The translations under genes were made by a program, and so were the position numbers. DNA of 64,000 bases from an uncultured Pseudomonadales bacterium (GTDB lineage: Bacteria > Patescibacteriota > Microgenomatia > UBA1400 > PJMF01): NCBI GenBank assembly GCA_964393205.1, contig CAYMSV010000002.1, forward strand, positions 28,078 through 92,077, given 5' to 3'. This document shows, piece by piece, positions 4,108-53,680 of the stretch. Within the stretch, counting starts at the first letter, position 1; each line of letters begins with the position of its first letter. The notes beneath the pieces were generated by a model that worked only from the letters and a program-made list of their open reading frames with translations, had not been told where the DNA came from and made no database searches.

Positions 4108-7100
4108 TTAATCTTCGTCCTTTCCTTCTTCTTCAATTGTTGCTTCATCCTCTTCTGCTAGATCATCTTCTTCATCTTCGTCTGCTTGATCTATGTTTTC
4201 TTCATCTGGTTCCTCATCACCAATCTCATCTTCTTCTTTATCAGCTGTTTTTTCAGAATCTAGGTCTTCTAAGATTAATAACTCTTCCTGATCTTTTTCA
4301 GCAGTTGGTTCTTCATCGCTAAGTACTACTTCTTCGAGTGGATCAATATTTAATGCTAAAGAATTTAATTCTTTACATAAAACCTTAAATGATTCTGGAA
4401 CTGTAGGAGCTGGAATTTCTTCACCTTTAACAATAGCTTCGAAAGCTTTAGCTCTCCCTCGTACATCATCTGACTTAATGGTCAACATTTCTTGCAAGAC
4501 ATAAGCAGCTCGATGTGCTTCTAGTGCCCAAACTTCCATTTCACCCATTCTTTGACCACCCATTTGAGCTTTACCTCCTAATGGCTGTTGCGTCACTAGT
4601 GAATAAGGACCAGTTGAACGAGCATGAGTTTTATCCTCAACCATGTGACTAAGTTTCAAAATGTAGTTAATTCCAACTACCGATTTTTCATGGTAAGGTT
4701 CACCAGTTAAACCGTCATAAAGCTGAGCTTTACCAGATACAGGTAAACCCGCTTTTTCTAATTCTTGCCAAATTTTATCTTCATCAAATACCTCAAAAGC
4801 TGGTGTAGCTACACTGTAACCCAATTTGTCTGCAGCCCAGCCTAAATGAGCTTCTAACAATTGACCAAGATTCATACGAGCCAAAACTGATAAAGGAGAA
4901 ACAATAATGTCTACTGGAGTTCCATCTTCTAAATGAGGCATATCAGCCTGTGGCACTATTTTAGAAATTACACCTTTATTACCATGACGACCAGCCAATT
5001 TATCTCCTACCACAATCTTTCGTAACTGAGCAACCTTCACTATCACTTCCTTAATTGTGCCTGGATCTAATTCATCACCTAAGTCACGATCTAAAATTTG
5101 CACATCAATTACCGTTCCTTCATCACCATGAGGCATACGTAGTGAAGTATCTCTAATTTCTTTAGATTTTTCACCAAAAATAGCTCTTAATAAACGCTCC
5201 TCAGGAGAAAGTTCTGTTTCACCTTTAGGAGCAACTTTACCAACCAAGATGTCTCCAGATTTAACGTGACTACCAACCTGGATAATTCCATCAATGTTTA
5301 AATTAGCCAAAAAGGTTTCGCTCACGTTTGGAATATCGTTGGTCAATTCTTCAGGACCCAAACGAGTATCCATAACTTTTGCTTTATGTTCACTAATTTG
5401 AATCGAACTCAAAGTATCTTCTTTTACTAATCGATCAGAAATGACAATAGCGTCCTCGTAACCCAAACCATTATATAAAGTATAAGCTATTAAAAGATTT
5501 GTACCCAAAGCCAGCTCTCCTTTATCAGTGGCTGGACCATCAATTAGTACATCACCTTTTTTCAGTTTATCTCCAACTTTAACCTCTGGAGTCTGATTGT
5601 AACAAGTGCTTTGAGCAGTACGAGCAAATTTATTTAAGGTATAAACAAGAGTACCTTGCTGATAACTAATGTGCTCATTTTTGTTTGTTTCTACCCAATT
5701 TTTTGCCTTATCATAGTGCTTGGGATCAATTTTTAAAATTATTTGACTAGCGTCAACACTCTGAACTTCCCCAGGAAATTCTGCTAATACTGTCCAACCC
5801 ATAGCTGAAGCTATTTCTTTTTCCATACCTGTGCCAATCACTGGGGCCTGAGTTTTAAGCAAAGGAACCGCCTGACACTGCATGTGAGAACCCATTAAAG
5901 CTCGATTAGCTTCATCATGAGCAATAAAAGGAATAAGTGAAGCACTGCTGCCCACCACTTGACGAGGTACCACATCAATATACTCAACTTTTTTCACCGA
6001 ACCTTCAATAAATTCATTGGCATGACGCATTGCTACCCAATCCTGAGTAATATATCCTTTGTCATCAATTTCCACGCCAGCATGAGTAATATGATAATCT
6101 TCTTCTTCATCAGCACTGAGATAAACAATTTCATCAGTAACTTTCATTTTTCCTCTAAAATCAATTACCTTGAGGTAAGGAGCTTCCAAAAATCCATATT
6201 TATTAACCCTGGTGTAAAGTGCTAAATAAGTAACCAAACCAATATTTGGTCCTTCTGGAGAACGAATTGGACAAATTCTAGAATATTGAGAAGCATTAAT
6301 ATCACGCATAGAAAATGATGCACGATCACGAGTAACTCCCCCTGTTCCCATCACTGATAAACGACGTAAATTGTCAATTTCTGATAGAGGATTTGTTTGA
6401 TCTAAAATAGTTGATAAACGATTACGACGGAAGAACTCAGCAATCGAAGCAATCAAAGGTCGAGCATTTACTAAAGCTGAAGGAGTTAAAACTTCATCGG
6501 TTTTAGTCAAAGACATTTTTTCACGAATTGAACGCTCTAAACGAATTAAGCCAATACGAAAAGCGCTAATTAAAACTAGCTCTCCAACTTGGCGCACTCG
6601 ACGATTTGATAAATGATCAATGCCGTCAACTTTTCCTTCTCCATTTTGTAACTTTATCAAATATTTGATGCTGGCTAAAACATCATCTTTGGCTAAAACT
6701 GTCAACTTCTCATCTAAGCTAATGCCTAAACGACGATTCATTTTATAACGACCAACCTCACCCAAGTCATAGCGACGTGGATTAAAAAACATATTTTTCA
6801 AAAATTCGCGAGCAGTTTCTAGCACTGCCGGTTCACCGGGTCGCATTTTTTCATAAAGTTCAATCAAAGCTTCCGCTTGATTGGTGGTTGAGTCTTTTCT
6901 TAAAGTATTATTAATGAGATCTAATTTGTCTTTTTCTAAGACCTCACCTAAAGCGTTGGCTATATCCTCATTAGTTTCCCAACCCAGAGCTCTCAATAGC
7001 ACGGTAGCTGGCATTTTGCGTCGACGGTCAATTTTAATTGTTAAAATATGGCGACGACTAACATTAATCTCTAGCCAAGAACCACGCATAGGTCGCAGTT

Positions 7101-7575
7101 CTGCTTTATAAAGTAATTCCTTAGAACTCTGATCTTCTTCTCCTGAAAAAAATACTCCTGGTGAACGCACTAATTGTGTAACAATGCCTCGCTCTATACC
7201 ATTAATAACAAAAGTTCCAGTATTGGTCATCGCTGGAATATCACCTAAAAATACTTCTTGAGTTCTTTCTTCACCAGTCTTTTTGTTTAAAAGTGTTGCT
7301 TCAACATAGAGTGGTTGATCATAAGAAACACTTTTGGTTTTAGCTTCAGTAGGAGTATATTTAGCTTGACCAAAACGATATTGACCAAATTTTAAAGACC
7401 AGTTTTTACCGGTAAAATCTTCAATGCCTTTGTCAGAATTAATTTCTTTCAATGATTCTTTAATACCATTATTCAAAAAATCTTGATAGCTATTGATTTG
7501 TAATTCAATTAAATCCAGTTTGGGTAAAACCTGATGATTTTGCCCCCAGTTCTGACGATTCATTGTTTGTGGCAT
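4108..7575 (-). CDS. rpoB: DNA-directed RNA polymerase subunit beta, with a very acidic C-terminal tail
   Basis: 1155 aa with rifampicin-cluster and catalytic regions recognisable (e.g. GGQRMGEMEVWALEAHRAAYVLQEMLT near the C-terminus). The last ~75 residues are almost entirely D/E. Confidence 0.95.
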   Translation of the reverse strand: MPQTMNRQNWGQNHQVLPKLDLIELQINSYQDFLNNGIKESLKEINSDKGIEDFTGKNWSLKFGQYRFGQAKYTPTEAKTKSVSYDQPLYVEATLLNKKTGEERTQEVFLGDIPAMTNTGTFVINGIERGIVTQLVRSPGVFFSGEEDQSSKELLYKAELRPMRGSWLEINVSRRHILTIKIDRRRKMPATVLLRALGWETNEDIANALGEVLEKDKLDLINNTLRKDSTTNQAEALIELYEKMRPGEPAVLETAREFLKNMFFNPRRYDLGEVGRYKMNRRLGISLDEKLTVLAKDDVLASIKYLIKLQNGEGKVDGIDHLSNRRVRQVGELVLISAFRIGLIRLERSIREKMSLTKTDEVLTPSALVNARPLIASIAEFFRRNRLSTILDQTNPLSEIDNLRRLSVMGTGGVTRDRASFSMRDINASQYSRICPIRSPEGPNIGLVTYLALYTRVNKYGFLEAPYLKVIDFRGKMKVTDEIVYLSADEEEDYHITHAGVEIDDKGYITQDWVAMRHANEFIEGSVKKVEYIDVVPRQVVGSSASLIPFIAHDEANRALMGSHMQCQAVPLLKTQAPVIGTGMEKEIASAMGWTVLAEFPGEVQSVDASQIILKIDPKHYDKAKNWVETNKNEHISYQQGTLVYTLNKFARTAQSTCYNQTPEVKVGDKLKKGDVLIDGPATDKGELALGTNLLIAYTLYNGLGYEDAIVISDRLVKEDTLSSIQISEHKAKVMDTRLGPEELTNDIPNVSETFLANLNIDGIIQVGSHVKSGDILVGKVAPKGETELSPEERLLRAIFGEKSKEIRDTSLRMPHGDEGTVIDVQILDRDLGDELDPGTIKEVIVKVAQLRKIVVGDKLAGRHGNKGVISKIVPQADMPHLEDGTPVDIIVSPLSVLARMNLGQLLEAHLGWAADKLGYSVATPAFEVFDEDKIWQELEKAGLPVSGKAQLYDGLTGEPYHEKSVVGINYILKLSHMVEDKTHARSTGPYSLVTQQPLGGKAQMGGQRMGEMEVWALEAHRAAYVLQEMLTIKSDDVRGRAKAFEAIVKGEEIPAPTVPESFKVLCKELNSLALNIDPLEEVVLSDEEPTAEKDQEELLILEDLDSEKTADKEEDEIGDEEPDEENIDQADEDEEDDLAEEDEATIEEEGKDED

Positions 7576-7807
7576 GAAGATCCTTGCTAATTTTTTTATT
7601 TATTTAATTAATTTTTATTCAGATGTGTTAATTTAAGAGCAATAGTAAAAAACACAGCCAAGATTCTGATTACTTGCTGTGGTGAATTTAATTAGTTTTT
7701 TTGTTGTGTTCTTAGAACAAAGTTCACAAATTAATTCTGCTACTTGCTATTGTTTCGGGCTAAAAGTCTCTTTTTAGACAATCGCACATTGTAACAGTAA
7801 ATCAAGA

Positions 7808-8803
7808 TCAACGCAAGTATTGATTTACATTAGCATTATGAACTTCAAGAGTGTTAGCTGTATGGATCTTCCCAGATAAGTCATGAATGTAATAAAAGGC
7901 GCTGGTTGACTGAGGATTAAGCACAGCTCTAATTGCACTTAGACCAGGGTTACAAATTGGCGAAGGAGGTAAACCAACTTCCTGATAAGTATTAAAAGGA
8001 GAATCTAGGTTTTTGTCCACTGCCAAAGGAGTTGGCCACCAAGTTTGTTCAGCCGCGCTATAGCCCCTTATATATTGCAGAGTTGCATCAACCTGCAAAG
8101 GCATGCCAATATCTAAACGATTGAATAAAATACCAGCTATTAAAGGCATTTCAGCCTCACTAGCACTTTCCCTTTGCACCAATGACGCGAGAGTTAGTAC
8201 TTGCTTTAAACTTAATTCTTCATCTTCTAAATCATCCTCCAAAGCTAAAACAATTTTACTTTCAAAGGTATTTTGTAAAAGATTAAGCAAGGCTTGAGTA
8301 TCAATACTCTTTGATACTAGATAAGTATCTGGAAACAGTTGTCCCTCTAAACCACTACTTAGCTCTAAAAAAACTTGCTCATCAAAAGCATTTAAATCTT
8401 GCTTAGAAAGACTAGCTGCTATTTCCTCGCGCCGCCAACCCTCTGGTAAAGTAATCCATAAATCATCAGTCCCTCTGGTTAAAGCTTGTGCTAATTCCCA
8501 AACTGATAAACTAGGTGATAGCTTGAATGAACCAGCCTGAATTTTGCTTTGTAAGCCTCTTTGATAAACTATTACCCTAAAAGCTAAACTAGAACGGATC
8601 AAACCTGCTTGACGAAGCCGCTGAGCAATTTGTTGGGTTGATTGTCCCTTAGGAATAACAAATGTAACAGTCATTTGATTACTAGTATCTACTGGCCTCA
8701 ATAAAGAAATAGCGATTATAACAATTGAAATAAAAGCGATTAAAACAGGCAATAGAACTAGACTGAGAACTTTGGTTTTTTTGGGAGATTGAGAACTTGG
8801 CAT
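7808..8803 (-). CDS. mltG: Endolytic murein transglycosylase MltG (YceG-like)
   Basis: N-terminal TM helix, then a YceG-like domain. Typical alaS-ruvX-mltG neighbourhood. Confidence 0.7.
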   Translation of the reverse strand: MPSSQSPKKTKVLSLVLLPVLIAFISIVIIAISLLRPVDTSNQMTVTFVIPKGQSTQQIAQRLRQAGLIRSSLAFRVIVYQRGLQSKIQAGSFKLSPSLSVWELAQALTRGTDDLWITLPEGWRREEIAASLSKQDLNAFDEQVFLELSSGLEGQLFPDTYLVSKSIDTQALLNLLQNTFESKIVLALEDDLEDEELSLKQVLTLASLVQRESASEAEMPLIAGILFNRLDIGMPLQVDATLQYIRGYSAAEQTWWPTPLAVDKNLDSPFNTYQEVGLPPSPICNPGLSAIRAVLNPQSTSAFYYIHDLSGKIHTANTLEVHNANVNQYLR

Positions 8804-9233: not shown

Positions 9234-10190
9234 CTAGTCTTTTACTAATTGTGCTGTAATTATACCGCGGCGTAAAGTTGTACCCTCTGGGGTACAGGTA
9301 ACCAACTTTAACTGACGTACATCATATCGTTGAGCTAAAATAAAGGTATCGTCTGGTTTAACCTCTGTCTTGCTCTGCACAATATAAGTATATTTAACAT
9401 TGTCATGGGTTAAATATATTTTTTCCCCTCTTTCAAGCAACATTATCTTGCTAAAAATGGAAGCATAACGACGAGGATTATTTTCACTAGGATTATAAAA
9501 CTGGCGCAACACTGAGTGACCAAAAAGAACTGGTGCACCTAATTGCCCAGGTAAAGCAGTGCCGGGATAGTGAATTAAGCTTTGATTAAGATCTGTACCA
9601 CCCACTCTTACTTTAGCATTAATCACATTTAAACTAGGAATATCTAAAGTGTATTCAACGAATTGACTTTTATTTAACTCTGGTACTTCAAGATCACTGC
9701 TAAACCAATTACTTAAATCGGTGAAATCAAGTGCTTGATCTAAAATAACTGGGCCAAGATTAGCATTGTTATTTTCTTGCTCATCTTCAAAATCAACTCG
9801 TGCTTGAGCAGAAATAAGAGGTGTACTTAATAAGAGCTGGGAATGTGGAATTGGCGACAACAAAGCTAATTCTTCTTGTTTTTTCCAAGGCAAATAATAA
9901 TCTATTAATGGCCAAAGTGCAGATAAAGCCAAAATTAAACCAGTAACTATCAAGGCCAAAGGCAATAGAGTTGCTCCAACCCGAATTTTTTTTGGTAAGC
10001 GCTGCCAAAAACTTAATTTAATTTGTTTGTCTAAAACTTGCTCCTCTTTACGACTAACGGCATCCTGTCTTAAAAAATAATTAATTTTTTTATTTAAATC
10101 TTGGATCGCTACTCCATCTTTTAAAGCTTGGCGATAAAGCTTTAATAACTGTTTTTTTTGTAGAGTTGATTGAGAATTTTTCTTAGCCAT
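9234..10190 (-). CDS. Sortase-family transpeptidase (membrane-anchored)
   Basis: C-terminal catalytic triad signatures: GH in VLFGHSVL, Cys in KLVTCTP (TLxTC motif), then Arg (TLRRG). N-terminal TM segment LLPLALIVTGLILALSALW. Confidence 0.7.
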   Translation of the reverse strand: MAKKNSQSTLQKKQLLKLYRQALKDGVAIQDLNKKINYFLRQDAVSRKEEQVLDKQIKLSFWQRLPKKIRVGATLLPLALIVTGLILALSALWPLIDYYLPWKKQEELALLSPIPHSQLLLSTPLISAQARVDFEDEQENNNANLGPVILDQALDFTDLSNWFSSDLEVPELNKSQFVEYTLDIPSLNVINAKVRVGGTDLNQSLIHYPGTALPGQLGAPVLFGHSVLRQFYNPSENNPRRYASIFSKIMLLERGEKIYLTHDNVKYTYIVQSKTEVKPDDTFILAQRYDVRQLKLVTCTPEGTTLRRGIITAQLVKD

Positions 10191-10191
10191 A

Positions 10192-12432
10192 CTAATCTAT
10201 AATAAAGTTAAATCGAGAAGAATTTTTTGGTAAGCGCTGTATAAATTGAGTCAAAAAAGCTGGTTGATAGACTATTTTCACTTGGTTTATCAATTCTTTA
10301 TCTTCTAAATTATTCCTCGCTTCTTCTATATTTTTACCAAGCAATAAATCCAATAATGATTCTTCATCAATATTTGCTCTAGATCTAGCAGATAATTCTG
10401 TGCTCAAAATTAAACGATTACTATCATCTTCAGCTGGAACAGGCTGATCACTTAACAATGATGGTTCTTCGTCAACAAATTCATAATTTTCTGGTAAATC
10501 CATAAGTAAAACTGCCTGCGCTAACTGCTTCAAATCACTAGATAAATATTTAATAGCTTCAACCTCTAAGGTCATTTCTAAAGAAAGAGTTTCCACCTCA
10601 TCTCCCTCTTCATGATCATATTCAAAAGAGCTAATACGGCTGTTATTGCTTGGCACAAAATAAACCCCATCTCTAGATTCTTCAGTAAATTCATTGATAG
10701 CAATTTCGTTTAGACTCGTTCTCAACTGACTCAGTAAAGTTTCAAGATCCTCTTTGGAAACTACTCTCACTTCTCTACTAGAACCGCCAGAAAAATTATC
10801 AATAACTGTAGCTGAATAAGTATCTTCACTAAAATCACCTATTTTTAACTTACTATTTTTATCAATGTTCGCTTCTGCTCCAATATCTTTAGCAAGCAAT
10901 GTTGCCTCCCCACTTCCATAATCCATTCCACTACCACCTTCTTCTTCCTCAGCAGCTGCCACCGTTACCTCATCTTCCAATTCAAACGTTATGTCTTCAT
11001 ACTCAAAAATCGTACCAGCAGCAAAAGTCTTTTCACTAGAAGTTTTATTAAACAAATTAACATTCCCTCTAGCTTTATCTCCAACCAAACTAATACCAGT
11101 TGTACTTAATGTATCTTCACCACTAATTTCCTTTTTTACCAAAGATGCTTTTAGTAGATTTTGATCATAATTAGATTCAGTTACTTCTGGATCAAGAATA
11201 ATATCTAAATTCTTTTGTAAAACTTGTCTGTCTGCCTTAATTTCTATTCTCACCTTTGATAGAAAAAAACTAAAAACAATTAAAATAACTATCAAAGACA
11301 ATAATCCACTAATAATACCGATTATTAGAGATTTACGATTTTTTCTTAGGAAACGAGCTAAAGGAGTCATTTTCTTAAATTTTTCTGGTGTACTTATTGG
11401 TACTGGATTAGTTTTTTTGACAGGCTGCTCAGGCTTGAATTCTTTCAATTCTTCAGACTTAAAGTTGGTAAATTGAGATTTCTTATCTTCTTCTTTTTCC
11501 TTGATTTTATCTGAGGCTAAATCAATACCAAAACTACTAATCTTTTGCTTTTCGACTCCAATCTCTGTTTGATCTGACAAATTTTTTTCGAAATTAGTGC
11601 TTTGCTTGGCGTTTTCAAAAGCCGGCAAATCCTGATCAAGCTTAGATTCAAAGCTGCTTGATAACATATGGCCTGCTGCTAAACTTAAAGATTTAATTAA
11701 AAAATCTGTTTCCAAAACTATAAATTGTGGTGATTGTAAAAAGCCATCTACTTCTTTCCAATCAAAAGTTTGTAGCTGTGACTGTTCTTTTTTCAAAGAT
11801 TTTTGACTAAGATTTAGTGAAGTAAGAAAAAGTCTATTGGGAAAATATTTTCCTTGATCACCCAACTCTTGACTTACTCTAGCCAAACCTTCTCTTAAAT
11901 CATCGGTTAATTTGGCTGATCTGCCAATTTGTAAATTCAACAATAACTGACCGTGCTTAATTAAGATTAAATCAAAGTCTTTCTCTCTTAAATATACTGT
12001 CAAAGAAGAGTCACGAGGATCATTCATTGTTCTAGATTTATGAATACCTTCAACCACACTCATTTGCCCCAAAGCAGATAAACTCAAGCTTTCTGATAAT
12101 TCTTGAATTATCACTTTTTTACTATCTAACAACTCACCATCTTTTAACCAAGATTCGTCAAAAATAAAAACACAATCCGCTACATCATCGGCCAATAAAC
12201 CCAAATCCTGAAGTGATTGATCAAGTTGAACTAGTAGATCTTGGCGATCAAAATAAGTTTTTATAGAAGAATACTCTTTGATTTCTTGTTTTTTATTAAC
12301 CAAAGCGCTTTGTAGCTCTTGATCACTCAAAACTATGGAAATAAACAATTCTTCCTGATTTAAGTCCTCATCTAGACCTTGATTACGATTTTCTTTTGTT
12401 TTTTTGGTAAATTTTTTCAATAAGTTGGGCAT
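10192..12432 (-). CDS. Hypothetical bitopic membrane protein (cytoplasmic ~370 aa, one TM helix, acidic extracytoplasmic ~350 aa); stop/start-adjacent to the sortase
   Basis: 746-aa ORF with a single strong TM helix (LIIGIISGLLSLIVILIVFSFFL) in the middle. No recognisable catalytic motifs. Separated from the sortase gene by a 1-nt gap, suggesting translational coupling. Confidence 0.5.
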   Translation of the reverse strand: MPNLLKKFTKKTKENRNQGLDEDLNQEELFISIVLSDQELQSALVNKKQEIKEYSSIKTYFDRQDLLVQLDQSLQDLGLLADDVADCVFIFDESWLKDGELLDSKKVIIQELSESLSLSALGQMSVVEGIHKSRTMNDPRDSSLTVYLREKDFDLILIKHGQLLLNLQIGRSAKLTDDLREGLARVSQELGDQGKYFPNRLFLTSLNLSQKSLKKEQSQLQTFDWKEVDGFLQSPQFIVLETDFLIKSLSLAAGHMLSSSFESKLDQDLPAFENAKQSTNFEKNLSDQTEIGVEKQKISSFGIDLASDKIKEKEEDKKSQFTNFKSEELKEFKPEQPVKKTNPVPISTPEKFKKMTPLARFLRKNRKSLIIGIISGLLSLIVILIVFSFFLSKVRIEIKADRQVLQKNLDIILDPEVTESNYDQNLLKASLVKKEISGEDTLSTTGISLVGDKARGNVNLFNKTSSEKTFAAGTIFEYEDITFELEDEVTVAAAEEEEGGSGMDYGSGEATLLAKDIGAEANIDKNSKLKIGDFSEDTYSATVIDNFSGGSSREVRVVSKEDLETLLSQLRTSLNEIAINEFTEESRDGVYFVPSNNSRISSFEYDHEEGDEVETLSLEMTLEVEAIKYLSSDLKQLAQAVLLMDLPENYEFVDEEPSLLSDQPVPAEDDSNRLILSTELSARSRANIDEESLLDLLLGKNIEEARNNLEDKELINQVKIVYQPAFLTQFIQRLPKNSSRFNFIID

Positions 12433-12525
12433 ATTTTTTGAATAATAAAAAACTGGGTTTAGATTAACCCCTCAATTACATTAAAGCAGAGTTTTGCTTA
12501 ATTTTAAAGAACTGAGTATCTCTTT

Positions 12526-14430
12526 TTACCTAAAACGAATGTAAATTCTTCTGATTCCTTGTGCAACAGCTTTTTCTTTAAAAATCTCTAGTTCTCCAAA
12601 ACGCGCTATTTGCGAGGTTCTTTCCACATGAGGTCCACCACACAGTTCCTTAGATATCCAATCTTGTTCGTCACCTATAGTGTAAACTTTTACTCTCTCC
12701 GGATAGCGTTCAACAAAGAAAGCAATTGCTCCAGACTCCAGAGCTTTTTCTTTAGACATTGTTTCACTAGAAACCTCTAAATCAGCTTTAAGCCAATCAT
12801 TTAACAATTCTTCTATTGATTGAAGTTGCTCCTTCGTTAAGGCTTGATCATAGCTAAAATCGAAACGCAAACGATCCTTATTAATGTTTGAGCCCTTTTG
12901 CTCAAGCTCATCACCTAAAATTTTTCGCAGCGCAGCTTGCAACAAATGAGTGGCTGTATGAAATGCTGTATTTTTAACATCTTGATTTGCCAAACCTCCC
13001 TTAAATTTTTCCTGAGTAGTTTGACGAGATAGTTGCGCGTGTCGATTCTGAGCCTCAATAATTTTACTTTCAATTTCTTCTTCAATTGTTATGTTCCTAG
13101 ATTTTGCTTCCTCAATAGATAATTCAAAAGGAAAACCATAACTCTCATAAAGCTTAAAAGCTAGCTCAGCTGTCAGCTGATCTTTCTTAACTATTAAACG
13201 ATTAAATTCTTTTAAACCTCTCAACAAAGTCCTGTTAAATTTCTCTTCTTCAGTTTTTAAAACTCTATTGATTAAATCTTTTTTCTTTAACAAATCTGTA
13301 TAAAAATCCTGATAAAGCTTCAAAACTTCCGGCACAACTTCTATTAAAAAATTTTCTTTCAATTCTAAATACCTGGCTTGTCTTAATGATCGCCTAATTA
13401 AACGGCGTAATAAATACCCCTGCTCCTTGTTGCTGGGTAAAACCCCATCACTAATTAACATGACACTGGCTCGAATATGATCAGCAATAATACGAAAAGC
13501 TGGTTTAAATTTTGGATCTTGATAATCTTTAGCGCTCAATTCGACTAACTTATTAATAATACCCAAAAAAGCACTGCTTTGAAAAACATCCATTTGATTT
13601 TCTACTGCCGCTAATAATCGCCCCAACCCTCCACCAAAATCAATATTTTTTTGGTTTAATTCTTTAAAACCATTTTGAGTGAGTTGATATTGCATAAACA
13701 CACTGTTACCAATTTCCAAAAAACGCCCACAATCACAATTAATGTGACAAGCTTGTTTGGCAAAAACAGATTGTTGATGTATGTCAAAATCAGTTTCAGA
13801 AGCTGCAAAATCATAGAAAACCTCACTATCCGGACCACCCAATTCACCAACAGGCATTTTAGCCGGCACCCCAGACCTCGACCACCAATTTTTTTCTTCA
13901 CCATAAAAGAATATTCGACCCTCCTGCAAACCCAGTTGAGGATTATCAATGATTTTTGCTTTAACTCCTCTTTTTTCAAATAATTTTTGCCAAATATTAG
14001 CTGCTTCATTATCCTTAGGAATATTAAGCTTTTTATTACCTGCAAAAACTGATATGTAAAGACGTTCTGGTTTTAACTTTAAAACATCAACTAAGAATTC
14101 AAAACAAAAATTGATTTGTTCTTCTTTAAAATAGTCACCAAATGACCAATTTCCCAACATTTCAAAAAAAGTTGTATGGCGATTATCACCCACTTCTTCA
14201 ATATCTTCGCTACGAAAACATTTTTGTGAATTAACTATTCTTTTTCCATAAGGATGTTTCTGTCCAAAAAAATAAGGAATCATCGCCTGCATTCCGGCAC
14301 TAGTAAATAAAGTTGTAGGATCATTTTCAGGAACCAAACTTGCTGAAGGAACAACTGCATGATCTTTGGCAATAAAAAAATCCAAATATAAACGACGCAA
14401 ACTAGATAAGGTTAAAGAAGGTTTAGACAT
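12526..14430 (-). CDS. alaS: Alanine--tRNA ligase, short form lacking the C-terminal C-Ala domain
   Basis: Class II AlaRS N-terminal motifs (FTSAGMQ, KCFRSEDIE, FFEMLGNWSFGDYFK) and editing domain (HTATHLL...CGGPHV). Only 634 aa. Confidence 0.9.
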   Translation of the reverse strand: MSKPSLTLSSLRRLYLDFFIAKDHAVVPSASLVPENDPTTLFTSAGMQAMIPYFFGQKHPYGKRIVNSQKCFRSEDIEEVGDNRHTTFFEMLGNWSFGDYFKEEQINFCFEFLVDVLKLKPERLYISVFAGNKKLNIPKDNEAANIWQKLFEKRGVKAKIIDNPQLGLQEGRIFFYGEEKNWWSRSGVPAKMPVGELGGPDSEVFYDFAASETDFDIHQQSVFAKQACHINCDCGRFLEIGNSVFMQYQLTQNGFKELNQKNIDFGGGLGRLLAAVENQMDVFQSSAFLGIINKLVELSAKDYQDPKFKPAFRIIADHIRASVMLISDGVLPSNKEQGYLLRRLIRRSLRQARYLELKENFLIEVVPEVLKLYQDFYTDLLKKKDLINRVLKTEEEKFNRTLLRGLKEFNRLIVKKDQLTAELAFKLYESYGFPFELSIEEAKSRNITIEEEIESKIIEAQNRHAQLSRQTTQEKFKGGLANQDVKNTAFHTATHLLQAALRKILGDELEQKGSNINKDRLRFDFSYDQALTKEQLQSIEELLNDWLKADLEVSSETMSKEKALESGAIAFFVERYPERVKVYTIGDEQDWISKELCGGPHVERTSQIARFGELEIFKEKAVAQGIRRIYIRFR

Positions 14431-14452: not shown

Positions 14453-14809
14453 CTAAATACCTTTGAATTGATTCTTTTTTTTCTGTCTACGTAATCGCTT
14501 ACGAGTTTTTTCTTTATCTTTAGATCGCTCTAATTTTGCTAAGACCAGAGTTAAATTATCTTTAAATTCAAATAAGGAGTGTTTGAGCTGTAAAAAATAT
14601 TTATCTTTTATTTCTTCTAATGTTAGTTCTGGACTATCTATTAAATTTTTTTTGTATAAATCTGAGCGAGCAGACTCCCAATCCTTTGCCAACTTTTTCC
14701 AAGTTTGCTGACCCTGCTCACTGGAAAAATAAGTGATAGCAGTACCCAGAGAAAATCCTATAGCCAAACCCGATAAAAAGCCATTAGCTTGTTGCTTATC
14801 TTCAACCAT
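14453..14809 (-). CDS. Hypothetical protein, possibly YtxH-like (glycine-zipper N-terminus, lysine-rich C-terminus)
   Basis: 118 aa with GFLSGLAIGFSLGTAITY hydrophobic glycine-zipper segment followed by a charged coiled-coil-like region. Weak resemblance only. Confidence 0.35.
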   Translation of the reverse strand: MVEDKQQANGFLSGLAIGFSLGTAITYFSSEQGQQTWKKLAKDWESARSDLYKKNLIDSPELTLEEIKDKYFLQLKHSLFEFKDNLTLVLAKLERSKDKEKTRKRLRRQKKKNQFKGI

Positions 14810-14812
14810 TTT

Positions 14813-15148
14813 TTAAATTTTCTTTTTACTTGACTGATTTAAGTCTTTTGTCTTCAAATCATCCTCACGGTGACGATTTAACCAAGTCATAAAACCTTCT
14901 GTCACTTTTAAACCAGCAGTAAAATTAGTAATAAAAGCACTCAAGCTATGAAAGGGGTTGAGAATCCCTTCAATTTTATTTTGAGTTGTATCAACTACTT
15001 GATTGGCCTTATCAATAACTTGATTAAATTTTTGTAAAGATTGTTTGATTTGTCCCAACACCATAATTAATTTAATGGCTAGTGCAACCAGCACCAAGGT
15101 TAAACTAGCAACGGAAATGGTTAAAACTAAAGGTAAAAACTCTGACAT
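14813..15148 (-). CDS. Hypothetical small membrane protein (DUF948-like architecture: N-terminal TM plus coiled coil)
   Basis: 111 aa with N-terminal TM helix LPLVLTISVASLTLVLVALAI. Pairs with the downstream YtxH-like ORF as in Firmicutes ytxG/ytxH pairs. Weak. Confidence 0.35.
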   Translation of the reverse strand: MSEFLPLVLTISVASLTLVLVALAIKLIMVLGQIKQSLQKFNQVIDKANQVVDTTQNKIEGILNPFHSLSAFITNFTAGLKVTEGFMTWLNRHREDDLKTKDLNQSSKKKI

Positions 15149-15217: not shown

Positions 15218-15901
15218 TCAGTAATTTACTTGAATAGTTCGCTGAACCACACTTGTCTTGCCTCGTTCATCTGTGGCTTTAATTGTAATCGTGGCTGGTC
15301 CTTCAATATCATAATAAAGTTCAGTGTTAAAAAAACCACCAGCTTGAAGAGCCACTGGTTGTGCATTGACTAGAACAGTGGCATTCATTATTGTCTGACC
15401 TTCAACTACTACCCTAGCTGCGGTAAGATCTCCATCACTTGGTTGAAAAACTTCTAAACGTGGAGGTCTGTTCAGAGAAAACCATTGCCAAGTAGCGTAA
15501 CTCAGAAAAATTAAAAACACACTTGCAATAAATAGAAGAGTTAAGCGTACTGGAGAAAATAAATTTGCTTTTCTAAAAGAATCTCGCAAAAATTCTCTAG
15601 GTAATAAACGTCCCTTAGCGCTTTCTTGGTAATCTCTTCGCAAAATTGCCAATAGGGGACGTGGATTAACTCCAAGTAATTTAGCGTAGTTGCTGATATA
15701 AGCTTTAGCGTAACTAGCATTGGGTAAAACAGCAAAATTATTTTTTTCAATTGCCTCAAGATAATTAAGTTTAATAAAAGTTTTCTCAGCAATATCTTTA
15801 AGTTCTAAACCGGCTGCTTTTCGATGTTTAATTAACAAGTCACCCACAGTTTGTGTTTTAATCGTTTGGTTCATTAGGGCAATTCTAGAAAGAATTCTCA
15901 A
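15218..15901 (-). CDS. RodZ-like HTH (XRE-type) membrane protein
   Basis: N-terminal HTH (VGDLLIKHRKAAGLELKDIAEKT), central TM helix, C-terminal beta-rich domain. RodZ-like architecture. Confidence 0.55.
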   Translation of the reverse strand: MRILSRIALMNQTIKTQTVGDLLIKHRKAAGLELKDIAEKTFIKLNYLEAIEKNNFAVLPNASYAKAYISNYAKLLGVNPRPLLAILRRDYQESAKGRLLPREFLRDSFRKANLFSPVRLTLLFIASVFLIFLSYATWQWFSLNRPPRLEVFQPSDGDLTAARVVVEGQTIMNATVLVNAQPVALQAGGFFNTELYYDIEGPATITIKATDERGKTSVVQRTIQVNY

Positions 15902-16451: not shown

Positions 16452-17219
16452 TTGACTGGTAGCCTGTATTATAAAACAAAGCCTGACTTTTTAAAAAAGC
16501 AAAGTCAGTTGGCTGTCAATTTAAAAAACTACAATGCTTTGGTGAACAACTTTTCATTTTTTCACTGTTGGCAAGCTTATTTACTACCAGATTTTTGTCA
16601 AAACTGTCAAAGATTGGGACCAATGCTTTGTGAAAGTTGCTATCAATTAGTTGAATTTTTTTGGCAAGAAGATCTAGCAGCGTTTTTTGCCAAAAATTTT
16701 GATAAAAATTATTTTGACCAAATAAGAGTGATGGCTCGTTTTAAATCTCCAATTAGCTCCTTAATTAAATCATTAAAATATCAACATCATAGCCGAGCAG
16801 CTAAGTTTCTAGCTCAAATGTTGTTTTTCCACCTAAATATTAGTTACGAAAAATTTGACTTAATAACCTTTGTTCCTATTCATAATCAAAAAATTAAAAA
16901 AAGAGGATACAATCAAAGTCAACTTATCGCTGAGGAACTAGCTGTTTGGACTAAAAAGCCTTGTTTAAATTTACTAAAAAAAACTGTCAACAATACTGCT
17001 CAAGCACAAATTAGTGACAAACAACAACGCTTGCAACGACTCAATAATACTTTTGAAATTTCTCATCCTTATTCTCAACACCGACCCTTAAAAAATAAAA
17101 ATATTTTAATAATTGATGATGTAATTACTACTGGCGCCACTATAAATAGCGCCAGTCGTGTATTAAAAAAATATGGGGTTGAGTGGGTTTCAGTTTTAAC
17201 TTTAGCAGCTAATCTATAA
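16452..17219 (+). CDS. ComF-family phosphoribosyltransferase-domain protein (ComFC-like)
   Basis: N-terminal Cys-rich Zn-finger (C..CxxC...CxxC) and C-terminal PRTase motif ILIIDDVITTGATI. The ORF begins 1 nt after the tRNA-Val gene on the opposite strand, so the true start is uncertain. Confidence 0.65.
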   Translation: MTGSLYYKTKPDFLKKQSQLAVNLKNYNALVNNFSFFHCWQAYLLPDFCQNCQRLGPMLCESCYQLVEFFWQEDLAAFFAKNFDKNYFDQIRVMARFKSPISSLIKSLKYQHHSRAAKFLAQMLFFHLNISYEKFDLITFVPIHNQKIKKRGYNQSQLIAEELAVWTKKPCLNLLKKTVNNTAQAQISDKQQRLQRLNNTFEISHPYSQHRPLKNKNILIIDDVITTGATINSASRVLKKYGVEWVSVLTLAANL

Positions 17220-17244
17220 ATTAAAAAAGATCAAACAAATATTA

Positions 17245-17273
17245 TTGATTTTCTCGAGTAAAAATGTTATAAT
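17245..17273 (+). promoter_or_regulatory. Candidate sigma70-type promoter for ssrA (-35 TTGATT, 17-nt spacer, -10 TATAAT)
   Basis: TTGATT at 17245-17250 and TATAAT at 17268-17273, about 17 nt upstream of the tmRNA 5' end. Confidence 0.4.
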
Positions 17274-17289
17274 AACTTGTTCTTTAACA

Positions 17290-17691
17290 GGGGATGTATT
17301 GTATTGACGTCAGTCAACTTTAATCATTGCAGATCATCTTTGGTGAAAAGATGTTAAACAACACTAAAAAATAACTGTCAAAAACAGTTTTAAAACAGCA
17401 GTTAATAAAGTCGCCAGTCTTTTTGACTTTGGCTTCGTAGCTGCTCCTGCTTTTGCTTAATTGTAAAAGTAGGCATCTAGTGTTGAACTCTTATCGACGG
17501 TTCACATTAGGTGAAAACCTAGTCGATTAGCAGAAATAAAGAATCAGGTCACTTTATTTCCAAGAATTAGGCCTGGATGAAGCAAAAAAAGTTTGTCTAT
17601 TTACTTCTTGCTTCAAATCGAAAATAAACTAAATCTGTAGATATCGTTAAAGTCAGATTAGCGGACGCGGGAGCAAAACCCGCCATCTCCA
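17290..17691 (+). ncRNA. ssrA: tmRNA (transfer-messenger RNA, SsrA)
   Basis: 5' GGGGATG... pairs with 3' ...CATCTCC-A, forming an acceptor stem with a G3.U70 wobble (the alanine identity element). T-arm GCGGG-AGCAAAA-CCCGC sits at the 3' end. An internal tag frame GUC|GCC AGU ... GCU UUU GCU UAA (17413-17460) is preceded by an in-frame TAA and encodes ASLFDFGFVAAPAFA. The AAGUCGCC context resembles E. coli UAGUCGCA. About 402 nt; CCA is not encoded. Confidence 0.75.
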
Positions 17692-17770
17692 CAACAGCAG
17701 ATCCTTATCTAAAAAATCAGCACTATATTAAAAATAGTGATTTTCTATATCAAAAAATCTATGAAGTTGC

Positions 17771-18268
17771 TTAATTCTTGGATTTAAGTGTCAAACCTAG
17801 ACCAAACACCAATATTCCAAAAGCAAAAATTATAATTGTGTTCTCTAAAGCGCCTGATTCTGGCAAAGTTTCTTCGGTGGCTGTCTCAGCAGAAGGCGTA
17901 CTAAGGCTGGCAACTTCCGCTACATTTATAACTAAGTCTAAAGTTTCTCCACCAGAACTAACTACCAAATCATTTTCACCATAAGAAACTTCCCTAAAAT
18001 TAACTCCCCAATTTCCCTCAACGTCAGCAACAGTATCATTGTTTAAATCAGCAAGTGCTATCTGCACTTCAGCTGAAGGAGAGGCAGTTCCTGTTACTGT
18101 GAAAGTCGTTAAGGTAGTTTCATAAACTTTAACTGTAGACCCCAAACCAACAATAGAATCATTACCTCCTATAGCATCAATCGTAAGAGCACTGGCCAAT
18201 GCTGGCTTAATTAAAAAAATAAGTAAAAATAAAAAAAGTAATTGAAAAGTTTTTATCATTTTTTTCAT
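17771..18268 (-). CDS. Small secreted protein with C-terminal LPESG sorting signal (putative sortase substrate)
   Basis: Signal peptide (MKKMIKTFQLLFLFLLIFLIKPALA). C-terminal LPESG, then hydrophobic helix ALENTIIIFAFGILVFGLGLTL, then basic tail KSKN. Paralog of 24028..24537. Confidence 0.6.
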   Translation of the reverse strand: MKKMIKTFQLLFLFLLIFLIKPALASALTIDAIGGNDSIVGLGSTVKVYETTLTTFTVTGTASPSAEVQIALADLNNDTVADVEGNWGVNFREVSYGENDLVVSSGGETLDLVINVAEVASLSTPSAETATEETLPESGALENTIIIFAFGILVFGLGLTLKSKN

Positions 18269-22955: not shown

Positions 22956-24020
22956 CTAATAGCTAGGTAGAAAAATCTTAACATTATCCGGACCTATAAT
23001 CACTTCTTTAAAACCTCTTTCTACAATAATTCGCGCGGCTTTACGCACCGCACCTTTAAGAGTGCGCTGCAATGTTCTCACTCCGGCATCAAAACCTAAA
23101 GGACGTACTAGCGTTGGCCAAATAGCCTCATCAATCTTAAACTGATTTTCTTTTAAGCCAGCTTCTTTCATAACACCTGGCAAAATATACTTTTTTGCAA
23201 TCACAATTTTCTCTTCGTCACTATAAGAAGGCATATCAATTCGCTCCATACGATCAATTACTGCTGTTGCAATACGTCTAGTATTATTACAAGTAGCAAT
23301 AAAAATAGCCTGACTTAAATTAACTGGATAATTAATATAGTTGTCTACAAAGGCATGGTTCTGAGCAGGATCTAATAGTTCTACTAAAACCCCCATAATG
23401 TCATTGTTAGCTTCATCAGCAGCTCGATCAATTTCATCTAGTAAAATTACGGGATTCATTGTCTTAGCTTCACACAAACCCTGAATAATTGCCCCTGGTT
23501 GAGCTTCTAAAATTAATCTTGATTCTCCACGTAATTCTTTAGCAGATACCATACCACCAATAGGAATACGCAATATCTGTCGTCCCAATGCTTCTGCTAA
23601 AGAATAAGCAAAAGTGGTTTTTCCAGTTCCCACTAAACCAACTAAAAGTAATATTGGAGCAGAAAATTCTTGATTGGTAAAATTTTGTTTTTGTAAATTA
23701 AGAATTGCTAAATATTCTAAAAAACGATCTTTAACCTCTTTTAAACCATAATGATGTTTATCAAAAATCGCTTTAGCCGCCTGAATATCCAGTGTATCTT
23801 CACTCTTTTGAGCAAAAGGGATTTTGATCACCCAATCTAAATAACGAGAAACTTTGTCATATTTTTCATCATAATTTCCCAACTTAACGCTACGTTCTAG
23901 AGAAACTAATTCTTTTTTTAGTTTTAATAACAGTTCTTCTGGTAATTGAATCTGTTCAATTTTAGCTCTTAACTCGTCAAGTTCCTGATTTAAAATTTCT
24001 TCAGAATTAATTTGAGACAT
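22956..24020 (-). CDS. Lon-like AAA+ ATPase module lacking the N-terminal (LAN) and C-terminal protease domains
   Basis: Collinear with LonA residues ~230-590: coiled-coil, then HYGLKEVKDRFLEYLAI, Walker A GLVGTGKTT, Walker B ILLDEIDR, sensor-2 region DAGVRTLQRTLKGAVRKAARIIV. The ORF ends where the S16 protease domain would begin. Start taken at the internal ATG (MSQINSEE) to avoid overlap with the upstream gene. Confidence 0.7.
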   Translation of the reverse strand: MSQINSEEILNQELDELRAKIEQIQLPEELLLKLKKELVSLERSVKLGNYDEKYDKVSRYLDWVIKIPFAQKSEDTLDIQAAKAIFDKHHYGLKEVKDRFLEYLAILNLQKQNFTNQEFSAPILLLVGLVGTGKTTFAYSLAEALGRQILRIPIGGMVSAKELRGESRLILEAQPGAIIQGLCEAKTMNPVILLDEIDRAADEANNDIMGVLVELLDPAQNHAFVDNYINYPVNLSQAIFIATCNNTRRIATAVIDRMERIDMPSYSDEEKIVIAKKYILPGVMKEAGLKENQFKIDEAIWPTLVRPLGFDAGVRTLQRTLKGAVRKAARIIVERGFKEVIIGPDNVKIFLPSY

Positions 24021-24027
24021 AAAAAGA

Positions 24028-24537
24028 TTAAAATTGCTTTGCTTGAAGTGTAAATCCCAGTCCAATGCTTAACATTGCTAAGGCCAAAAACAAAATAGTA
24101 GTAGTAGTTGAACCAGCTTCCGGCAAAGTATCTTCAGTACTACTAATCGTAGCTTCTTCAGATTCTGTTGCTTCAGCAACCTCACCAATAGTTAAAACGA
24201 AATCTAATGTTTCATCTCCAGATTCTAAATTAAATTGATGATCACCTTCAGCCAAAGATGAAACCAAGTTTGTCCAACCCCCTTCTGCATCAGCTGTCGC
24301 TGTTTGAGTTGAATCGTTAATCAAGATAGATATGGTAGCAGAGGGAGAAGCTAAACCAGTTAATTCGAAAGTTCCACCAGAATAAGTATAACTTTTCAAG
24401 CTTCCTCCCAGATCTAAATCAGACACATCCATAGCTCCTAAACCAGTGATTTGCAAAGAAGAAGCTAAAACCTTTTGAAAAAAAAGCAAGGGAAAAGCGA
24501 GTAATAACAATGTAGTAACAATTAAAATTTTTCTCAT
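24028..24537 (-). CDS. Small secreted protein with C-terminal LPEAG sorting signal (paralog of 17771..18268)
   Basis: Signal peptide. Shares SGG..L.G.ASPSA...I...D...AD.EG.W and G.ETLD.V..I.EVA blocks with the LPESG protein. C-terminal LPEAG, then hydrophobic segment STTTTILFLALAMLSIGLGFTL, then QAKQF. Confidence 0.6.
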   Translation of the reverse strand: MRKILIVTTLLLLAFPLLFFQKVLASSLQITGLGAMDVSDLDLGGSLKSYTYSGGTFELTGLASPSATISILINDSTQTATADAEGGWTNLVSSLAEGDHQFNLESGDETLDFVLTIGEVAEATESEEATISSTEDTLPEAGSTTTTILFLALAMLSIGLGFTLQAKQF

Positions 24538-53446: not shown

Positions 53447-53451
53447 TTATG

Positions 53452-53520
53452 TTGCGGGACTAGGAGTCGAACCTAGCCTGTGGGATTATGAGCCCCACGT
53501 GCACCGTACACTATCCCGCG
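53452..53520 (-). tRNA. Initiator tRNA-fMet (anticodon CAT), compact 69-nt form
   Basis: Reverse complement CGCGGGA-TA-GTGT-ACGGT-GCAC-G-TGGGG-CTCATAA-TCCCA-CAGG-CTAGG-TTCGACT-CCTAG-TCCCGCA-A. C1.A72 mismatch and three consecutive G-C pairs in the anticodon stem are initiator hallmarks (cf. E. coli CGCGGGG...CCCCGCAACCA). 5-nt D-loop. Confidence 0.7.
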
Positions 53521-53602
53521 TTTTGATAAGCGCTATTATAGCTTAAGCTCTGCTTGTTTTTCAAGAGAAAAAATCTTAAAATATGCCTTGATCAACATAA
53601 TC

Positions 53603-53676
53603 GGCGAGGTAGCTCAGTTGGTTAGAGCATCGGATTCATAAACCGAAGGTCGTGAGTTCAAGTCTCACCCTCGCTA
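53603..53676 (+). tRNA. tRNA with CAT anticodon (elongator Met or Ile2-lysidine type)
   Basis: GGCGAGG-TA-GCTC-AGTTGGTTA-GAGC-A-TCGGA-TTCATAA-ACCGA-AGGTC-GTGAG-TTCAAGT-CTCAC-CCTCGCT-A. Good cloverleaf with G1.U72 wobble and A31.A39. Confidence 0.8.
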
Positions 53677-53680
53677 CAAC

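Follow-up and report, generated by a model that had tools for sequence, protein, structure and literature searches.

We describe a conserved gene pair in a 64,000-nucleotide stretch of DNA (the window) from an uncultured bacterium, contig CAYMSV010000002.1, positions 28,078 to 92,077. The pair consists of a gene for a 746-residue membrane protein, here called p746, and a sortase gene (srt) that follows it directly. Together with ruvX, the two genes form an invariant, tightly packed unit inserted in an alaS–ruvX–mltG cluster. Judged from its sequence, the sortase is catalytically intact, membrane-anchored and of a lineage specific to the Microgenomates of the candidate phyla radiation (CPR). 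The predicted structure of p746 indicates that this protein shares fold-level ancestry with two known systems among FtsA/PilM, GspL and baseplates. The explanation that we favor, with a confidence somewhat short of even, takes p746 to be a transmembrane scaffold for wall assembly, itself not an enzyme, and the sortase to be its likely client. The core of the locus reads as follows:

10192–12432, minus strand: p746 gene, open reading frame (ORF) of 746 aa; coordinates include the stop codon
9234–10190, minus strand: sortase gene (srt), ORF of 318 aa, Pfam PF04203
8817–9218, minus strand: ruvX (YqgF), Pfam RuvX, E = 1.5e-25
7808–8803, minus strand: mltG/YceG-family endolytic transglycosylase, Pfam YceG, E = 2.8e-74, downstream in the conserved block
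12526–14430, minus strand: alaS, short form of 634 aa, Pfam tRNA-synt_2c and tRNA_SAD, the invariant upstream neighbor of p746

The positions and lengths of both ORFs, the single nucleotide between them and the alaS, ruvX and mltG neighbors are as given in a preliminary description of this DNA. The junction reads ...GAT TAG t ATG GCT..., with 1 nt between the p746 stop codon and the sortase ATG. The ruvX start lies 15 nt past the sortase stop, which makes ruvX a member of the packed unit, and 93 nt separate the end of alaS from the start of p746.

We compared this arrangement with that of 12 loci from reference genomes (96–40% p746 identity), 80 loci from metagenomes (63–24%) and four loci holding three distant p746 homologues (21–25%). 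Their ORFs were analyzed with phmmer. Of 73 non-redundant loci, 68 have at least 400 bp downstream of p746. A check on relatives, suggested in the preliminary description, gave a clear result: in all 68 of these loci, whose p746 identities range between 96% and 24%, the gene after p746 is the sortase gene, and ruvX comes next. The spacing at the junctions of the block was as follows:

alaS–p746: median gap 62 nt; gaps >300 nt at 4 of 61
p746–srt: median gap 2 nt; gaps >300 nt at 0 of 69; maximum 146 nt; ≤30 nt at 62 of 69
srt–ruvX: median gap 2 nt; gaps >300 nt at 1 of 64; ≤30 nt at 57 of 64
ruvX–mltG: median gap 101 nt; gaps >300 nt at 15 of 52
mltG–rpoB: median gap 247 nt; gaps >300 nt at 5 of 41

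Insertions of more than 300 nt are tolerated elsewhere in the block but were not seen at any of the 69 p746–srt junctions.

The single opened srt–ruvX junction was found in one relative (locus L040), where a murD-like Mur-ligase gene with a GxxGKS/TT motif (6936–8429 of that locus, minus strand) sits on the opposite strand between the two genes. This gene and the others seen inserted into the block in relatives, which encode a proline-rich membrane protein and two enzymes, are anecdotal as hints to function.

The 318-aa protein is a sortase, as had been proposed. The Pfam profile PF04203 is covered in full by residues 182–316 (69.8 bits against a cut-off of 26.6, E = 2.3e-19), and solved sortases in the PDB align to the catalytic region with a best E of ~1e-5. 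The hallmark motifs are G224-H225 (GH), LVTCTP with C299, and R308. Alignment of the non-redundant orthologues from the related loci showed H225 in 67 of 67 and both C299, within [VI]TC[VT]P, and R308 in 66 of 67, so that each member of the catalytic Cys/His/Arg set is kept in at least 66. In the sequence, a hydrophobic anchor at about residues 71–96 is preceded by a basic N-terminus. The protein can thus be divided into a cytoplasmic N-terminal extension (1–70), a transmembrane (TM) anchor (~71–96), a linker and the catalytic domain (182–316).

Profile searches, which the preliminary description had recommended for both proteins, placed the sortase far below all of the NCBIfam class models that matched (17–38 bits against cut-offs of 140–166 bits). 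Its scores were 36.6 for class E (cut-off 160), 35.9 for class C (160), 34.2 for class D (165) and 17.5 for class F (166), and class GN was likewise under its cut-off; no class A or class B model was among the NCBIfam matches, and the generic model TIGR01076 fell just short at 38.5 against 39.35. Because the scores lie under the cut-offs of all class models that matched, we regard the sortase as lineage-specific. A sortase family, fam000526, was reported to be near-ubiquitous in Microgenomates (Meheust et al. 2019, PMC6744442). Sortase length in the related loci is bimodal, with 214–250 aa in distant clades and 313–328 aa in the clade studied here, and the 70-aa cytoplasmic extension is therefore clade-specific.

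All ORFs of the window were scanned for a sorting signal made up, in this order, of pentapeptide, TM segment and basic tail. Exactly two proteins were returned, with the pentapeptides LPESG and LPEAG:

17771–18268, minus strand: candidate substrate 1, 165 aa; signal peptide, small beta domain, LPESG, TM, KSKN tail
24028–24537, minus strand: candidate substrate 2, 169 aa, a paralogue of substrate 1; signal peptide, LPEAG, TM, QAKQF tail

Substrate 2 gave a weak match to the immunoglobulin (Ig)-like Big_13, and an orthologue of substrate 1 with the identical type of sorting signal is present at a related locus (L002). With two such LPE[S/A]G proteins predicted from the window, the sortase has plausible clients. 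They lie 7.6 and 13.8 kb from the sortase gene, close to the 8 and 14 kb first estimated. This distance had been presented as an anomaly, on the ground that sortases are normally found beside their substrates. Adjacency to substrates is the habit of pilus-type sortases and generally not of housekeeping ones (class A/E); the premise stands for the former and fails for the latter. Since housekeeping sortases are not normally beside their substrates, the anomaly is smaller than was claimed. p746 itself was considered as a substrate and rejected: it has no C-terminal pentapeptide, TM segment and basic tail, as had already been noted, and the conserved LPK near its C-terminus (P735) falls within strands that are predicted to be folded. 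The ORF of an AAA/Lon-lid ATPase (22956–24065, minus strand), mechanically called from a TTG start, overlaps the end of the LPEAG gene by 38 nt; its true start is probably further downstream.

Like the housekeeping sortases (PF04203, classes A and E), the enzyme combines the sortase fold and a conserved His-Cys-Arg set with an N-terminal membrane anchor, and its candidate substrates, with pentapeptide, TM segment and basic tail, are scattered rather than adjacent. Unlike them, it is paired with an LPE[S/A]G motif, not LPxTG or LAxTG, carries the 70-aa cytoplasmic extension in this clade, and is encoded between a new membrane protein and ruvX.

p746 belongs to no Pfam or NCBIfam family, and the databases name its homologues "hypothetical protein"; one UniRef name in the family begins "Baseplate p...". 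Direct assignment through Pfam, NCBIfam and PHROGs was tried and rejected, as it yielded only a sub-threshold DUF874 match and a PHROG of unknown function over the low-complexity linker. The family is nevertheless very large: among 1.84 billion cluster representatives, a profile search retrieved 11,058 clusters (50% identity) at E ≤ 1e-3, and 2,945 when the threshold was E ≤ 1e-30; the top 150 representatives are all near full length (614–825 aa), and the full-length architecture is retained in 150 of 150. Full-length homologues, from 96% to ~20% identity, occur in hundreds of metagenomes, so p746 and the sortase are not chance ORFs. By record titles, the named family members are Woesebacteria, Collierbacteria and Pacebacteria, all of them CPR bacteria of the Microgenomates type, and the size of the family matches the reported near-universality of the Microgenomates sortase family (PMC6744442). 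The base composition of the p746 gene equals that of the surrounding DNA.

Several public records of metagenome-assembled genomes that hold this CPR locus (L001, L002, L005, L006 and L010, and P0031) bear the title "uncultured Pseudomonadales bacterium" or else "Spirochaetia bacterium". Given that gene content and closest relatives point to Woesebacteria, Pacebacteria and Collierbacteria, the taxonomy of these records looks placeholder or wrong.

The structure of p746 was predicted with AlphaFold2 from a 30-sequence alignment (predicted local distance difference test, pLDDT, of 78). The model divides the protein as follows:

11659–12351, minus strand: residues 28–258, folded; cytoplasmic minimal actin-like domain of the ASKHA (acetate and sugar kinase/Hsc70/actin) fold, closest to FtsA/PilM
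11371–11655, minus strand: residues 260–354, disordered, variable cytoplasmic linker (pLDDT <50)
11260–11331, minus strand: residues ~368–391, TM helix, the hydrophobic core of model helix 357–390
10762–11256, minus strand: residues ~393–557, extracytoplasmic beta domain resembling Baseplate-J/baseplate-wedge proteins

Beyond the membrane, residues 393–746 form one folded region in the model, in which the Baseplate-J/wedge part is followed by alpha/beta domains. Because the basic stretch RFLRKNRK precedes the single TM helix, the N-terminus is placed inside and the C-terminus outside. The ectodomain is acidic (73 D+E against 34 K+R) and is the best-conserved portion of the protein. This anatomy (actin-fold N-half, TM helix, Baseplate-J-type C-half) agrees in model and charge distribution with the cytoplasmic N-half, one TM helix and acidic outer C-half of the preliminary description, which had also called for a structure prediction.

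In the model, the N-terminal domain has the two lobes of the ASKHA fold. Its core of ~230 residues contains the beta-beta-beta-alpha-beta-alpha-beta-alpha unit twice, which corresponds to a minimal pair of subdomains 1A and 2A with no 1C subdomain or insert. The top fold matches are FtsA and PilM, and PilM:PilN complexes are among the best. ASKHA proteins reportedly share the motifs set out by Bork, Sander and Valencia in 1992, which FtsA and PilM are said to carry as DxGxx, DxGGG and GG. At the corresponding phosphate-1, phosphate-2 and adenosine hairpins (residues 33–40, 146–153 and 200–207), p746 reads IVLSDQEL, YLREKDFD and LFLTSLNL. Reading the sequence against the model strands, we found no DxG, DxGGG or GG at these hairpins and no glycine-rich family consensus. 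Because the glycine loops are absent from both p746 and the family consensus, the modeled domain is probably a pseudo-ATPase. None of 24 family members matched the FtsA, SHS2_FtsA, PilM_2, PilN or GspL profiles of Pfam, and hhalign of the family profile against Escherichia coli FtsA (a manually entered query sequence) returned a probability of 0.2. Since neither Pfam nor hhalign shows a sequence link, the tie to FtsA is at the level of the fold only.

Two short motifs accompany this part of the protein. The N-terminus (residues 1–12) carries a peptide of the form M-x-LPNLF, here MPNLLKK, whose strict pattern is found in ~30% of 152 representatives. The linker contains [ST]SFG[IV] (SSFGI, residues 299–303), with the strict pattern in 64 of 152 and an invariant G302. 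By analogy with PilN and PilM, both may be peptide ligands, possibly for the groove of the actin fold.

The core fold of Baseplate-J/wedge proteins is present in the modeled outer part. The p746 of the window itself has no Pfam Baseplate_J match at E ≤ 0.1; Baseplate_J (PF04865) is matched by 15 of 24 diverse family members, at best with E = 1e-6, and two distant members (P0028 and P0029) match phrog_6, the PHROG "baseplate wedge subunit". The family profile also gave a weak match to diffocin TRI-2 (E = 0.077). The most conserved motif of the family, F[ST]GGSSRE[VI]R (here FSGGSSREVR, residues 547–556), lies in the ectodomain and aligns with the "GGxxxE" signature of Baseplate J.

How might such a protein work? 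The pseudo-ATPase actin-fold domain would dock a cytoplasmic partner, probably the division or elongation machinery, and the baseplate-like ectodomain would form an extracytoplasmic platform, so that p746 would link the two by a logic comparable to that of GspL or PilM–PilN. In phage tails, the baseplate fold builds oligomeric wedges. The sortase, presumably co-translated, would be the most probable client of the platform, and MltG, which would also work at the outer leaflet, on nascent glycan or lipid II, may be a second one. In this way, LPE[S/A]G proteins would become attached to lipid II or nascent peptidoglycan where wall synthesis takes place. The neighborhood is supportive: the envelope or septum is the site of action of MltG, a RodZ-like protein and FtsK, DUF948- and YtxH-like proteins are encoded nearby, and the murD-like gene of L040 sits next to the sortase gene. 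The genes upstream of alaS are:

15218–15901, minus strand: RodZ-like protein with HTH_25, TM segment and Glucodextran_B-type Ig domain
14813–15148, minus strand: DUF948-like small membrane protein
14453–14809, minus strand: YtxH-like small membrane protein

These three are kept in nearly all related loci and, with FtsK, give the neighborhood an envelope/division character. A precedent for a factor of this kind comes from Actinobacteria, in which the membrane factor SafA is genetically linked to a housekeeping sortase and controls it (PMC9282373).

Several observations weigh against a specific partnership of p746 and the sortase. The order of ten genes, (ftsK)–RodZ-like–DUF948–YtxH–alaS–p746–srt–ruvX–mltG–rpoB, is frozen across the clade, and no related locus was seen in which the p746–srt pair had been relocated together or split. 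srt and ruvX are packed almost as tightly as p746 and srt, though ruvX has no plausible role in sorting. The conserved ectodomain residues are generic motifs of the Baseplate J fold, with no obvious binding or catalytic site. Since the cytoplasmic extension of the sortase is missing in the more distant clades (214–250 aa), it is no universal docking element. Tight packing is hence not evidence of joint function, because ruvX is coupled in the same style and the whole block is conserved; adjacency alone is no proof of function, and the scaffold reading is unproven. For the same reasons adjacency cannot tell a sorting scaffold from an unrelated division-type protein, the two options that the preliminary description had offered, and its interpretation as a whole is partly supported.

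The second of these options, that p746 descends from FtsA/PilM and serves division or morphogenesis independently of the sortase, is a serious contender that we nonetheless hold to be doubtful on balance. The position beside srt would then be a legacy of the operon in a genome that has been streamlined, as for ruvX, and the synteny of the whole block would leave the linkage without specific information. FtsA and PilM as top fold matches fit this explanation, as does the conserved company of FtsK, the RodZ-like HTH_25 protein, DUF948, YtxH and MltG. It does not account for a p746–srt junction that was never split by insertion while others were, and p746 has no sequence-level kinship to FtsA or PilM and lacks the nucleotide-binding loops and subdomain 1C that those proteins use. 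Moreover, we know of no divisome protein with a baseplate-type ectodomain. That ectodomain could instead be taken as the essence of the protein: p746 would be a baseplate wedge domesticated from a phage or contractile injection system, serving as an adhesive or structural surface platform with which an episymbiotic CPR bacterium would contact its host or other cells, and the sortase would serve the LPE[S/A]G proteins only. In its favor are the good support for both fold and sequence motifs of Baseplate J, the size and strong acidity of the ectodomain, and the known investment of CPR bacteria in surface appendages (PMC6744442; 10.64898/2026.03.03.709456). Adhesins and receptor-binding proteins, however, usually vary fast and reside in variable loci, whereas p746 sits in a frozen housekeeping block with the ectodomain as its best-conserved part; sheath, tube, spike and other tail genes are absent from the window, and the conserved cytoplasmic actin-fold domain is left unexplained. 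We consider this explanation distinctly unlikely.

An alignment component of a type IV pilus or secretion machine, of the GspL or PilM–PilN type, would be built like p746, with a cytoplasmic actin-like domain that lacks ATPase motifs, a single TM helix and a domain outside, and the PilM:PilN complexes among the best fold matches are in keeping with it. The chances of this explanation are nevertheless slim. No pilB, pilC, pilin or pilD gene was found in the 64-kb window or the flanks of the 96 related loci, the 24 family members examined have no PilM_2, PilN or GspL match, and the ectodomain resembles Baseplate J, not the ferredoxin-like domains of PilN/PilO/GspL. A complete Microgenomates genome, furthermore, is reported to have its own, separate PilM in a pilus locus (PMC7143001). 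Finally, the Pfam and PHROG baseplate matches of family members might suggest a prophage or contractile-injection-system remnant that came to lie beside the sortase by accident. This idea we regard as effectively excluded by the frozen synteny (the same position in 73 non-redundant loci across deep divergence), the native composition and the absence of tail or other phage genes; in addition, the Baseplate-J part shares its polypeptide with a TM helix and an actin-fold domain, and the full-length architecture is kept throughout the top representatives.

Comparison with known systems places the scaffold reading in context. SafA is a small TM protein with an FPW motif that protects SrtA from signal peptidase (PMC9282373). 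Like SafA, p746 is encoded beside a sortase gene, and SafA shows that a sortase can be under the control of an accessory factor. Unlike SafA, p746 has 746 residues, FPN (197–199) in place of FPW and large folded domains inside as well as outside the membrane, and the two have no detectable homology. The modeled p746 is bitopic like GspL and PilM–PilN, its single TM helix joining a cytoplasmic actin-like domain to an outer one. It differs from these proteins and from FtsA in its minimal 1A+2A core without 1C, in the lack of sequence similarity and in its Baseplate-J-like outer domain, and no pil, gsp or ftsZ genes were found in its neighborhood. The modeled outer core shares its fold with wedge proteins of the Baseplate J/gp6/gp47/TssF type (PF04865). 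Unlike the wedge proteins of contractile tails, this domain would belong to a bitopic protein of the cell and be exposed beyond the cytoplasmic membrane, with its gene in a frozen housekeeping locus; tail, sheath, tube and spike genes are lacking in the window and in the flanks of the 96 related loci. In the searchable literature we found no description of an actin fold inside combined with a baseplate fold outside, and our searches of the literature on CPR sortases met with passing mentions of the sortase only.

The remaining features concern the setting of the locus. One element lies in the alaS–p746 spacer:

12455–12470, minus strand: terminator-like hairpin with T-run, from a consensus scan only

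Judged from the sequence, it may mark a transcription-unit boundary or a structure in the 5' untranslated region; in the scan for promoters and terminators, promoter-like sites were not commoner than in shuffles and are thus uninformative. The window has a low GC content (~35%), and the other genes examined are core housekeeping genes (rpoB/C, alaS, ftsK, RNase J, PNPase, IF-2, nusA, dnaK/J/grpE, ftsH and suf). Between 351 and 49994 nearly all genes are on the minus strand, GC skew is steadily negative and cumulative skew falls monotonically; orientation flips only after ~50 kb. A strong strand compositional disparity has been reported for a complete Microgenomates genome, and the pattern in the window resembles it (PMC7143001).

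Some individual genes of the window are also worth recording. The alanyl-tRNA synthetase of 634 aa consists of the catalytic domain and tRNA_SAD, with nothing beyond about residue 630, and the short form (606–634 aa) occurs in all related loci; typical bacterial alanyl-tRNA synthetases are considerably longer and possess a C-terminal domain. RpoB (4108–7575, minus strand) ends in an extremely acidic low-complexity tail of ~90 residues (EEPTAEKDQEELL...EEEGKDED). A tmRNA gene is located at 17175–17694 on the plus strand. Rfam assigns 17290–17694 (98.6 bits), while ARAGORN starts at 17175 and reads the tag peptide VKNSFKTAVNKVASLFDFGFVAAPAFA, so that the two differ in the 5' boundary; the ARAGORN call overlaps the 3' end of a ComF-like phosphoribosyltransferase ORF (16452–17219). 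Two divergent tRNA-Met (CAT) genes, 83 nt apart, occupy 53451–53677; the one on the minus strand is 69–70 nt long and weak (45.5 bits). The pair may be initiator and elongator, or one of them may be a tRNA-Ile2 precursor.

Sortases are textbook surface enzymes of Gram-positive bacteria, and their positioning and control in the membrane are known in few species only. The CPR makes up a large share of bacterial diversity, and its envelope biology is almost unexplored. In p746, a very large unannotated family is strictly linked to the sortase of such a lineage, and a role in sorting is plausible. If p746 is a scaffold of sorting or wall assembly, it would give a handle on surface organization in ultra-small bacteria and would be a case of a phage structural module recruited to a core cellular job. 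Should p746 instead be an independent division protein, it would still be a lineage-defining component that deserves a name. At its most specific, the proposal is that a degenerate actin fold of the FtsA/PilM kind, fused to a domesticated phage-type baseplate wedge, forms an oligomeric, envelope-spanning platform that positions the housekeeping sortase and perhaps MltG where wall is synthesized. We think this full version unlikely; if true, however, the platform would be a previously unknown kind of sortase-organizing machine and the first cellular use of an outward-facing Baseplate-J domain.

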